Shown here piece after piece: positions 2,611 through 4,021 of a DNA stretch of 5,161 nucleotides. Under the pieces are notes generated by a model. It was not told where the DNA came from. It saw only the letters and a list, made by a program, of their open reading frames with translations, and did no database searches. Position numbers and translations under genes: made by a program. This DNA comes from a virus (Duplodnaviria; Heunggongvirae; Uroviricota; Caudoviricetes). The DNA lies in the IMG/VR virus record IMGVR_UViG_2526164688_000026; one strand, given 5' to 3'. Every line of letters starts with the position of its first letter. The stretch's first letter is position 1.

Positions 2611-2717
2611 AGACAGAAACGGGACTCACGAATCCCGTAAATGACCAAAAAACGCGCAGCGATATATGAAGCGCGCACAAAACAGGCAAAAACGGGATTT
2701 CAGAATCCCGTAAACGA
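2611..2717. promoter_or_regulatory. Candidate parC-like centromere / ParR operator with embedded parMR promoter
   Basis: Two imperfect direct repeats (about 2611-2644 and 2684-2717) of form cag(a/g)ca(g/a)aaACGGGA-N8-TCCCGTaaa(t/c)ga. Each holds a 6-bp inverted repeat, ACGGGA 2619-2624 / TCCCGT 2633-2638 and ACGGGA 2692-2697 / TCCCGT 2706-2711. Cores are 73 bp apart (about 7 helical turns). Between them is a GC dyad around a TATAT stretch (CGCGC 2653-2657 ... GCGCGC 2671-2676). Lies immediately upstream of parM. Promoter elements are weak matches only (possible -35 ATGACC 2641-2646, -10 TATATG 2663-2668). Confidence 0.4.
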
Positions 2718-2745
2718 TTAATTAATCAACATAAGGAAAAGCGAC

Positions 2746-3705
2746 ATGAAAATTTGTATCGACGACGGCTCCACCAACATCAAGCTGGCATGGACTGAGA
2801 ACGGCGAACGCCGCAACGCCATCAGCCCGAACAGCTTCAAGTCGGAATGGTCTGCGCCGTTCGGTGGCACGCAGCCCGCGAACTACATGCTTGATGGCGT
2901 GCGCTATGGTTTTGATCCGGTCAGCGATCGCTTTGTCCAGACGACCGACACGCAATACCAATACAGCGATGTGAATATCATTGCCATTCATCACGCGCTG
3001 GTCAAATCAGGCATCACACCACAGGAAGTGGATGTGGTTGTCACCCTGCCACTGAGCGAGTATTTCGATACAAACGCACAGCCGGACATGGCCAACATCA
3101 ACCGCAAAAAAGCGAACGTCATGCGCCCGGTGGAGTACCAGAACGGCGAAGCATTCACTATCCGTAACGTACGGGTTATGCCTGAATCCATTCCGGCTGG
3201 CTTTAAGGCACTGGCTGACATGAATCCGTTTGAATCCCTGCTGATTGTGGATTTGGGCGGAACCACGCTGGATGTGGCAAAGGTTCAGGGGCAACTGGCA
3301 GGTATCAGCCAGGTGTTTTGCGATCCACACGTAGGCGTTTCTCTGATGGCCGATGCCGTACTGTCGGTGATGGCCACTAACGGTATGCGCACCAGTCACC
3401 ACATCGCCAATACCATTATCGAACATCGCCATGATGAAGCCTGGCTGCGCCAGCACATCCACAATGACGCGCATTACGCCAGCCTGATGGCGGTAATTCG
3501 TGAAAAGGAAGAAACACTGAAACAACGCGTGATCCGCGCGCTGGCGGGTTTTTCGGGTTACGGTCGGGTGATGGTTGTCGGTGGCGGGGCGGAGATTGTG
3601 GCACCCGCTATCCGCGAAGCCTGCGGAGTTAATGCGACTTTCATCGCGGACGGGGTGCCACAGTTTGCTCTGGTTAATGGGCTGTACGCAATGGACAAGG
3701 AGTAA
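2746..3705 (+). CDS. parM: ParM / StbA actin-like plasmid segregation ATPase
   Basis: 319-aa ORF, ATG 2746 preceded by AGGA at 2734-2737, stop TAA 3703-3705. Motifs recalled from plasmid R1 ParM are present: IDDGSTNIKL (phosphate 1), YSDVN, HHAL, RKKAN, VMPESIPAG, LIVDLGGTTLD (phosphate 2), GVSL, FSGY, VMVVGGGAE, LVNG. Collinear over the full length. Confidence 0.9.
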   Translation: MKICIDDGSTNIKLAWTENGERRNAISPNSFKSEWSAPFGGTQPANYMLDGVRYGFDPVSDRFVQTTDTQYQYSDVNIIAIHHALVKSGITPQEVDVVVTLPLSEYFDTNAQPDMANINRKKANVMRPVEYQNGEAFTIRNVRVMPESIPAGFKALADMNPFESLLIVDLGGTTLDVAKVQGQLAGISQVFCDPHVGVSLMADAVLSVMATNGMRTSHHIANTIIEHRHDEAWLRQHIHNDAHYASLMAVIREKEETLKQRVIRALAGFSGYGRVMVVGGGAEIVAPAIREACGVNATFIADGVPQFALVNGLYAMDKE

Positions 3706-3709
3706 ACCA

Positions 3710-4021
3710 ATGACGACTCCAACCAGACGGATAAGTTTCTATCTGAAGCCTGCGGCCGTCAAGAACGAAAGCGAAGCATGCGCCTGGCTGGACAGCCTTA
3801 CACCGGAAGCCCGCAAAAGCGGCCAACGCGTGGCTTTTCTGGCCGGGCTGGCACTTCTGAAAATGAATCCAGCAGAGGCTTACCGACTGGCTGCATGGGC
3901 TGACGATGAGGCGTTATCAGTGACACAAACCAGGACAGAATGCCCCGCGTCACAGCCAGTATCAACCGCACAGATAACCAGTCAGATGGCCGGAAATATC
4001 CGGGCGTTATTTCCCGAATAA
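3710..4021 (+). CDS. parR: ParR / StbB-like centromere-binding adaptor (ribbon-helix-helix type) of the ParMR system
   Basis: 103-aa ORF, ATG 3710 with strong SD AAGGAG at 3698-3703, 4 nt after the parM stop (operon arrangement). N-terminus MTTPTRRISFYLKP...LDSLTPEARKSGQRVAFLAGLAL resembles R1 ParR (RRTIAFKLNP...LDSIPQGERSRLNRAALTAGLAL). The longer ORF-track start at 3575 lies inside parM and is rejected. Confidence 0.7.
   Translation: MTTPTRRISFYLKPAAVKNESEACAWLDSLTPEARKSGQRVAFLAGLALLKMNPAEAYRLAAWADDEALSVTQTRTECPASQPVSTAQITSQMAGNIRALFPE

Follow-up and report, generated by a model that had tools for sequence, protein, structure and literature searches.

Our analysis of the 5,161-nt window, by which we mean the whole stretch of phage DNA under study, indicates by homology that it carries a genuine actin-type ParM/ParR DNA-segregation cassette. 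The window belongs to a P2-like prophage (P88 group) that is very common in E. coli, and not to a plasmid. With somewhat more than even confidence we propose that the cassette is a type II segregation system that forms a core module of integrative P2-like phages and serves their excised circular genomes. The following features were delineated in the window:

1..2669, plus strand: gene A, P2 gpA-type rolling-circle replication endonuclease (Phage_GPA, phrog_91, annotated homologues)
2603..2644, no strand: repeat copy 1 with a palindrome at 2619-2638, candidate ParR site (parC/operator), from the repeat search
2676..2717, no strand: repeat copy 2 with a palindrome at 2692-2711, candidate ParR site, from the repeat search
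2746..3705, plus strand: parM, intact, actin-fold segregation ATPase of 319 aa (Pfam, PDB 1mwk, identity to R1 ParM)
3710..4021, plus strand: parR, intact, adaptor of 103 aa in a short-linker form (Plasmid_stab_B, phrog_2515)
4027..4050, no strand: hairpin with a perfect 10-bp stem directly after the parR stop (repeat search, RNA fold)
4120..4527, plus strand: cargo ORF of 135 aa in a variable slot of low GC (0.40-0.45), no Pfam or PADLOC match
5012..5161, minus strand: 3'-end of the P2-type portal gene (Q), annotated as 'phage portal protein' at the same position in relatives

Homology searches confirmed both proteins of the cassette, which a sequence-only reading had named beforehand. ParM matched StbA_N (3.7e-82) and the ParM C-terminal domain (8.7e-69) in Pfam, aligned end to end with the R1 ParM structure 1mwk (E 8.6e-93), and shares 46% identity with R1 ParM over 316 aa. 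Its nucleotide-binding motifs DDGSTNIKL, MPESIPAG, DLGGTTLD and GGGAE are conserved and the same as in R1 ParM. The parR gene follows after a gap of 4 nt and starts at the ATG at 3710, in agreement with the 312-nt gene annotated in relatives, with 4021 as the end of its stop codon. Its product matched Plasmid_stab_B in Pfam (4.3e-24) and phrog_2515 (1.5e-57), and keeps the N-terminal DNA-binding region as well as the C-terminal N-x-x-x-x-F tail. N96 and F101 of this tail do not vary between the ParRs of phages, ICEs and plasmids (alignment A3), and this motif suggests that ParR is a working adaptor. Thus, a ParM with intact nucleotide-binding motifs is followed by a ParR with a predicted DNA-binding N-terminus and a predicted ParM-binding tail, as is typical of type II systems. 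In NCBIfam, ParM gave sub-threshold matches only (19-23 bits versus cut-offs >200) and gpA and ParR gave none; ParR had no sequence match in the PDB.

The ParM proteins of phages P88 and PhiSM are 99.1-99.4% identical to that of the window. Among P88-like copies the dN/dS of parM ranges from 0.01 to 0.15, i.e. the gene is under purifying selection. Of the ParM sequences in the retrieved clusters, ~20% are truncated forms, indicating that parM can be lost in some prophages. The gene order gpA-parM-parR-cargo-portal was also found in prophages of Plesiomonas, Hafnia, Serratia and Enterobacter, with ParM identities to the window of 62%, 62%, 58% and 54%, respectively. True plasmid ParMs reach no more than ~52% identity, and ParMs at <=50% identity were located in an ICE or an integrated plasmid. 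In the ParM tree, sequences from a phage context fall into two subclades with 100/100 bootstrap support each; their union is supported by only 50/100, so that no single acquisition is claimed. These diverged loci were drawn from the protein search and contig look-ups, and the ParM peptide scan of genome contigs yielded only three near-identical loci. Judging from these comparisons, parMR appears to be a conserved core module of the P88-group lineage and of distant Enterobacterales prophages rather than casual cargo. One of the three scanned loci is labelled Vagococcus, probably owing to contamination.

The gene preceding the cassette had been read as a P2-type initiator, which the profile search bears out. 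The ORF at 353-2587 matched Pfam Phage_GPA (PF05840) over the full profile 1-321 (E 6.7e-131), and the gene product matched phrog_91, 'nicking at origin of replication'. Its position directly 5' of the ParM/ParR pair (parM 2746-3705, parR 3710-4021) likewise holds. Its extent had to be revised, since 353..2587 is only the longest uninterrupted piece of gene A: intact homologues, annotated as 'replication endonuclease', comprise 940 aa and are equivalent to window positions -154..2669, about 154 nt of the 5'-end being lost at the window edge. Gene A is broken here by three single-base indels, called against four relatives (+C at 31, -1 at ~221-228 and +1 at ~2556-2559). Sequencing errors were considered as their cause; only 1 of the 3 falls in a longer homopolymer run. 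No indels were seen across the 1.7 kb of parM, parR and the 135-aa ORF, a contrast with gene A that is not significant for three events. The damaged copy of gene A is the only novelty that this window adds. Hundreds of RefSeq genomes and phage records already contain annotations of the cassette, and a 2021 survey of phage-plasmids (PMC7969092) had commented on the partition genes in P88.

The repeat found upstream of parM is a 42-nt direct repeat whose copies are 81% identical, each containing the palindrome ACGGGA-N8-TCCCGT. Copy 1 sits within the 3'-end of gene A, and copy 2 lies 35 bp 5' of the parM start within the 76-bp spacer between A and parM. The two exact matches of the palindrome compare with 0.17 expected by chance, and a complete 34.5-kb relative has no exact copy besides these two. 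Within the P88 group the palindrome arms are kept while the centres vary. A GGG-N10-CCC pair recurs at similar offsets from the parM ATG (-125/-52 in the window, -131/-59 in Plesiomonas, -128/-55 in Hafnia) and with a similar spacing (73, 72 and 73 bp, respectively), although the sequences differ. The Plesiomonas sites would give stems of 3-4 bp only, which favours protein-binding sites over RNA hairpins. No iteron array was found upstream of parM, only the two 20-bp palindromes; TATCTC iteron arrays are present in the plasmid-type loci L013 and L014. Hence, of the centromere-like region postulated at 2611-2745, the repeats and palindromes are real, but the region is small and has no R1-type iteron array. 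As two sites are far fewer than the iterons of an R1-type parC, they might serve as an operator only. Two other interpretations of the palindromes were dropped. A scan flagged them as minus-strand terminator-like sites, but gene A encloses copy 1, there is no minus-strand gene with its end in the vicinity, and the sites of Plesiomonas hardly form a stem. A part in the gpA origin was set aside because the origin of P2 is located well within its gene A.

On the other side of the cassette, the hairpin at 4027-4050 has a folding energy of -18.4 kcal/mol (z -4.7), and homology to Xuanwuvirus P884B11 stops at 4047. It probably marks the point at which the A-parMR transcription unit ends and the variable cargo begins. 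Only 100 out of 1146 genomes fully share window positions 4000-5161, and the corresponding slot of relatives holds HicAB, KAP NTPase, DUF4760 or Ea22-like genes. The earlier view that parMR occupies a place of variable cargo therefore has to be split: such a slot exists, but it starts after the hairpin, and parMR itself belongs to the conserved block. Neither ParM nor ParR nor the 135-aa ORF had a match in PADLOC, which leaves a known defence system unsupported, and Rfam at E up to 0.1 gave no match in the window. With a presumed P2 cohesive-end sequence, no match was obtained at <=3 mismatches and cos was not located.

Phage P88, assigned to Xuanwuvirus (Peduoviridae) in the taxonomy line of its record, is 96.8% identical to the window over 96% of the window length. 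This near-identity to a classified member, the gpA-family initiator and the portal gene in opposite orientation at the right end identify a P2-like phage, one of the two options that had been offered, and the relatives are full P2-like genomes. An integrase with att, the Cox-C repressor switch, and genes for capsid and tail, all of which fall beyond the window, are present in every full-length P2-like relative examined, and an integrase was found in relatives wherever the end of the element was visible. The window DNA was matched in 1457 out of 5426 complete E. coli genomes; at this population level, 1789 of the 1791 matching places of relatives are chromosomal. For P88 (PMC5285337) and the Citrobacter phage PhiSM (PMC6456863) integration and inducibility were demonstrated by experiment. 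In the full maps of P88 and of pZ1323PEC0009-2, a 34.5-kb circular 'plasmid' record holding a whole P88-like genome, no plasmid-type replicon is annotated and gpA is the only replication gene. Phage-plasmids are maintained extrachromosomally and possess a plasmid-type replication module, usually without an integrase. The maps show no such module, and the chromosomal locations and the ends of the circular record, which are exactly the att junction of integrated relatives, do not indicate such maintenance. Persistence as an episome, which had been suggested from the presence of parMR, is thus not supported as the normal lifestyle, although P88-like phages may adopt a transient or facultative episomal state.

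As our preferred explanation, the cassette would act on the circular phage genome outside the chromosome and move it, most probably at the time of replication. ParR dimers would bind the two palindromes, which span the region from the 3'-end of gene A to the parM leader, and growing ParM-ATP filaments would be caught by the conserved C-terminal tail of ParR, so that circular phage genomes are pushed apart or positioned by the filaments. The presumed targets are monomeric circles resulting from gpA-driven replication. The parMR genes come last in the early (cox...A) operon, with which they are co-oriented, and the scan for plus-strand terminator-like sites found none between A and parM; from this we infer that they are expressed upon derepression, after infection or excision. 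Since the sigma-70 scan revealed no consensus promoter upstream of parM, expression by read-through is assumed. In the integrated, repressed prophage, parMR would be silent or self-repressed. The AlpA/AlpC actin system of prophage CGP3 serves as the precedent for such a role in phage DNA replication (PMC4446434). The literature searched contained no expression, binding or phenotype data for the cassette. A hok/gef gene, a second R1-like stability function, is also present on P88-like phages according to the maps of P88 and pZ1323PEC0009-2, and it is at least equally compatible with a plasmid-like state.

A dual lifestyle would account for this combination. The phage would normally integrate but could also persist as a low-copy circular episome, e.g. 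if attB is missing or occupied, stabilized by ParMR and Hok. Pfeifer et al. 2021 listed P88 among candidate phage-plasmids, noted its partition genes and suggested both episomal and integrative states (PMC7969092). The presence of both R1-type stability functions on P88-like genomes and the circular record point in the same direction, as does the Plesiomonas phage, which forms a separate 32-kb contig with the integrase at its end. However, an assembly graph gives ends such as those of pZ1323PEC0009-2 from excised circles, so the record is no proof of stable maintenance. The chromosomal location of nearly all copies in complete E. coli genomes and the regular presence of the integrase also speak against this explanation. 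Furthermore, the sole replication gene encodes a rolling-circle nickase in a repressor-controlled early operon, whereas KS14, the one proven P2-like plasmid prophage, has RepB and ParA and no integrase (PMC3091744). We therefore regard a dual lifestyle as unlikely, albeit as the strongest competitor of a role in moving excised genomes.

Alternatively, parMR could be accessory cargo which disturbs ParMR-type plasmids or rival phages by incompatibility or exclusion, or which provides a fitness benefit to the host. The cassette adjoins the variable slot that separates gene A from the portal gene, and ORF35 of PhiSM was tabulated as a 'fitness' gene by Magaziner et al. (PMC6456863). In contrast to cargo, its position is fixed down to 54% ParM identity while the adjoining slot turns over. 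The phage possesses its own co-varying cis sites, which do not resemble plasmid iterons, and PADLOC gave no matches. Such a role seems improbable to us. Considerably less probable still is a decaying relic of an old plasmid-phage recombination that has no present function. The truncated ParM clusters and the frameshifts in the adjoining gene A could be taken as signs of decay, but they are opposed by the low dN/dS of parM, by the R1-like catalytic motifs and the retained ParR tail motif, and by a synteny and cis-site layout held across genera. An ordinary plasmid with a phage-type HUH initiator, the other option offered by the sequence-only reading, has nothing in its favour besides the presence of parMR and can practically be dismissed, because a P2-type portal gene stands at the window end, the relatives are complete P2-like prophages, and the 'plasmid' records with window DNA represent a phage circle after excision, wrongly labelled replicons of megabase size, or an IncC plasmid with IS26-bounded prophage fragments.

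If the cassette indeed moves excised phage genomes, ParMRC, the best-understood bacterial DNA-pushing machine, would have a second, viral use, and this in a prophage that ranks among the most frequent of E. coli, with an occurrence in about a fifth of complete genomes. P2-like phages package monomeric circles, which gives the separation of circles a clear physical meaning. A two-site cis element would also define the minimum size of a ParR landing pad. More tentatively, and with doubts outweighing our confidence, we suggest that integrative P2-like phages of Enterobacterales use a ParM cytoskeleton of their own with a minimal two-palindrome centromere to move circular genomes that replicate or have yet to integrate, be it as a DNA-positioning device or as a bet-hedging switch between integrated and episomal lysogeny, and not for plasmid maintenance. 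Since P88 and PhiSM are culturable and lysogenize K-12, the role of the cassette and its possible benefit to the phage should be easy to test.

Compared to known systems, the cassette most closely resembles ParMRC of plasmids R1 and NR1 (parA/stb, type II). Both have the order cis site, parM, parR, the R1-type similarity of ParM extends over its full length, and the ParRs belong to the same Pfam family. The R1/NR1 system resides on a plasmid, whereas the cassette of the window is located in an integrating P2-like phage and its ParR is short. R1-type plasmids contain ~10 direct 11-bp iterons around a promoter, unlike the two palindromes found here 73 bp apart. P88 and PhiSM share the order from gpA to the portal gene with the window, which differs from them in the three frameshifting indels of gene A and in another cargo gene after parR. 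Among the phage records, a further ParM homologue (47.8%) was present in D6 alone, which we take to be a P1-like plasmid prophage. KS14, a Burkholderia phage with P2-type virion genes, lives as a plasmid (PMC3091744); in contrast, the P88 group keeps gpA and the integrase and is found in chromosomes. A functional and architectural likeness, and only this, exists to AlpA/AlpC of the Corynebacterium glutamicum prophage CGP3, an actin-like ATPase and a DNA-binding adaptor with adaptor sites upstream of the operon, as proposed for the window. The actin family, the host and the phage type are different, and the adaptor gene comes first. This system of an integrated prophage is induced early after excision and is required for efficient phage DNA replication (PMC4446434).

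The window carries four co-oriented genes on the plus strand, followed by the 3'-end of one minus-strand gene. The initiator and partition genes are:

353-2587, plus strand: ORF of the gpA-type initiator, matching the entire Phage_GPA profile (E 6.7e-131)
2746-3705, plus strand: parM, matching both ParM domains (StbA_N, 3.7e-82; C-terminal domain, 8.7e-69)
3710-4021, plus strand: parR, matching Plasmid_stab_B of the ParR/StbB family (4.3e-24)

PHROGs gave concordant labels: 'nicking at origin of replication' on the initiator ORF, 'partition protein' on parM and parR. The window ParM could be aligned from end to end with the sequence in the plasmid R1 ParM crystal structure (E 8.6e-93); the two proteins share 46% identity across 316 residues and identical phosphate-binding, catalytic and adenosine motifs. 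The parR ATG at 3710 lies four bases downstream of the parM stop and opens a frame of 103 residues, as annotated in relatives. Although short, ParR retains both a conserved N-terminus and, in its C-terminal tail, an N-x-x-x-x-F motif that is invariant in the phage, ICE and plasmid ParRs aligned. In R1, the ParR tail is the part that docks on ParM, as known from the ParM-ParR peptide structure. Hence, profile matches, R1 ParM alignment and parR start confirm the sequence-only reading of a P2-type initiator directly followed by a ParM/ParR pair.

The extent proposed for the initiator, 353..2587, was not borne out. Gene A of intact relatives encodes 940 residues and is equivalent to window positions -154..2669; translated in this frame, the window displays stops and one shifted stretch. 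Alignments with four different intact relatives revealed three private single-base indels in the window gene A:

31: inserted C
about 221-228: one base missing
about 2556-2559: one extra base

The first 300 bases of the nearest allele, STEC1585, are identical to the window apart from the first two indels. No indels were present in parM, parR and ORF 4120-4527. Either the window gene A is a pseudogene of a defective prophage copy or the indels are assembly errors, alternatives between which three events cannot discriminate.

Over 96% of its length, the window shares 96.8% identity with Escherichia phage P88 (Peduoviridae, genus Xuanwuvirus). Matches occurred in 1457 of 5426 complete E. coli genomes and spanned at least 80% of the window length in 910 of them; 1789 of the 1791 matching places were chromosomal. 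The full-length relatives are P2-like temperate phages of the ordinary kind. Integrase, C repressor, Cox and several small early genes come first, then gene A, parM, parR and a short variable segment, and finally the portal, terminase, capsid, lysis and tail genes. P88 was induced by mitomycin C from the K88 chromosome (PMC5285337), and K-12 lysogens of the related PhiSM carry this phage at a defined attB (PMC6456863). A P88-like prophage with a 97% identical ParM was also found on a 226-kb contig (NZ_JBQPOM010000071.1) of a genome labelled Vagococcus sp., probably reflecting enterobacterial contamination or mislabelling.

The main alternative is that P88-like phages are facultatively episomal, a state proposed when the partition genes of P88 were noticed by Pfeifer et al. 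2021 (PMC7969092). It is favored by a circular 34.5-kb 'plasmid' record (L001, NZ_CP148288.1) that represents an entire P88-like phage, and by a toxin gene of the hok/gef family located close to ogr and attP (L001 1291-1431; L017 34928-35068). Since the stability loci of plasmid R1 are ParMR and Hok/Sok, homologues of both are present in these phages. However, the relatives are overwhelmingly chromosomal and retain an integrase in every case where the end of the element can be seen. Their full maps also show no plasmid-type replicon, unlike KS14, a proven P2-like plasmid prophage with RepB and ParA and without integrase (PMC3091744). Moreover, L001 begins and ends exactly at the att junction that integrated relatives show beside pdxB, as expected of an assembler rendering excised circles. 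The remaining 'plasmid' records with window DNA comprise megabase replicons that are mislabelled and one IncC plasmid with IS26-bounded prophage fragments. The latter, the 228-kb conjugative KPC plasmid pC-Ec2-KPC (NZ_MK439959.1), contains two such P88-like fragments, which include gene A and parMR. A plasmid using a phage-type initiator, also considered in the sequence-only reading, is refuted by the complete integrase, capsid and tail gene sets of full-length relatives, their chromosomal residence and the integration of P88 and PhiSM.

Of the 50,697 phage records searched, none encoded a ParM homologue apart from those of the P88 group (96-99.7% identical) and phage D6 (47.8%), a P1-like phage-plasmid. 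The closest true plasmid ParMs share about 52% identity with the window ParM. Intermediate homologues were obtained by protein search, and their encoding loci were then looked up. Those from Plesiomonas (62%), Hafnia (62%), Serratia (58%) and Enterobacter (54%) reside in P2-like prophages with the order gpA-parM-parR-cargo-portal, whereas homologues with 49% and 50% identity belong to a conjugative element and an integrated plasmid, respectively. One locus of the Serratia/Enterobacter lineage, L012, has two extra genes between gpA and parM. In a neighbour-joining tree the phage-context ParMs formed two subclades with 100/100 bootstrap each; because their union reached just 50/100, parM was acquired once or twice. 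dN/dS of parM in P88-like copies was 0.01-0.15. The DNA downstream of parR turns over: window positions 4000-5161 are common in full to just 100 of 1146 genomes, and HicAB, KAP NTPase, DUF4760 or Ea22-like genes occupy this slot in relatives. Given the fixed order across genera, the low dN/dS and this turnover, parMR is a conserved phage module. It adjoins the variable-cargo site in which it had been placed, but the slot begins only after parR.

In Escherichia albertii (L004 7965-8280) a parR highly diverged from that of the window, with length differences and an uncorrected dN of about 0.5, lies beside a 99% identical parM and unchanged palindrome arms; the cassette is therefore mosaic. In the window, ORF 4120-4527 (135 aa) occupies the variable slot that separates parR from the portal gene and is low in GC (0.40-0.45). 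The ORF had no Pfam or PADLOC match, and its C-terminal half matched phrog_13916, labelled 'DNA ligase' (8.7e-30). Non-coding positions 4530-4700, ahead of the portal gene in window coordinates, carry a 26-nt repeat (4570-4595 and 4652-4677) together with several terminator-like hairpins. This stretch is, by analogy to P2, a likely place for cos, but a search with a P2 cos sequence gave no match within 3 mismatches.

A 42-nt direct repeat precedes parM (2603-2644 and 2676-2717), each copy including one ACGGGA-N8-TCCCGT palindrome. The window contains these two exact matches and no others (0.17 expected by chance), as does a whole 34.5-kb relative. Counted from the parM ATG, GGG-N10-CCC sites are located at:

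-125 and -52, spacing 73 bp: every P88-like copy
-131 and -59, spacing 72 bp: Plesiomonas
-128 and -55, spacing 73 bp: Hafnia

Despite the near-equal spacing, the site sequences differ among the three groups. In the P88 group the palindrome arms are conserved and the centres variable. As the Plesiomonas sites are predicted to fold into 3-4 bp stems only, a protein-binding site appears more likely than an RNA hairpin. In the Serratia/Enterobacter subclade a different long inverted repeat replaces the pair (L011 7880-7990; L012 5880-5990), with ~19-bp inverted arms (GGGAAC.A.ATAGAAAAAT) some 30 bp apart. The plasmid and ICE loci compared carry classic TATCTC iteron arrays. Thus, of the suggested centromere-like region a candidate cis element does exist, but it has two sites only and is much smaller than R1 parC.

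ParMR in P88-like prophages is already known as an observation, since hundreds of RefSeq genomes and phage records annotate ParM and a 'plasmid partitioning/stability protein', and the cassette was tabulated as a 'fitness' gene in the PhiSM paper (PMC6456863). Our literature search found no paper testing the function of P88-group parMR, which is an easily testable question. New here are how deeply parMR is conserved among genera, the arrangement of the cis element as two sites and the division of phage parMR into two operator types.

From cox through parR, the early genes all point in one direction. Neither a plus-strand terminator-like site between gene A and parM nor a consensus promoter upstream of parM was found, and a strong hairpin (-18.4 kcal/mol) follows parR where homology among relatives breaks. 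From these features we infer the most likely mode of action. In the absence of the repressor, parMR would be expressed as part of the early replication operon. Bound to the two palindromes, ParR would tune expression and also tether circular phage DNA to filaments of ParM. These filaments would separate or position circles arising from gpA-dependent replication, to the possible benefit of the phage. A precedent is the Corynebacterium glutamicum prophage CGP3, which soon after excision induces the actin-like protein AlpC and the adaptor AlpA, both needed for its DNA to replicate efficiently (PMC4446434).
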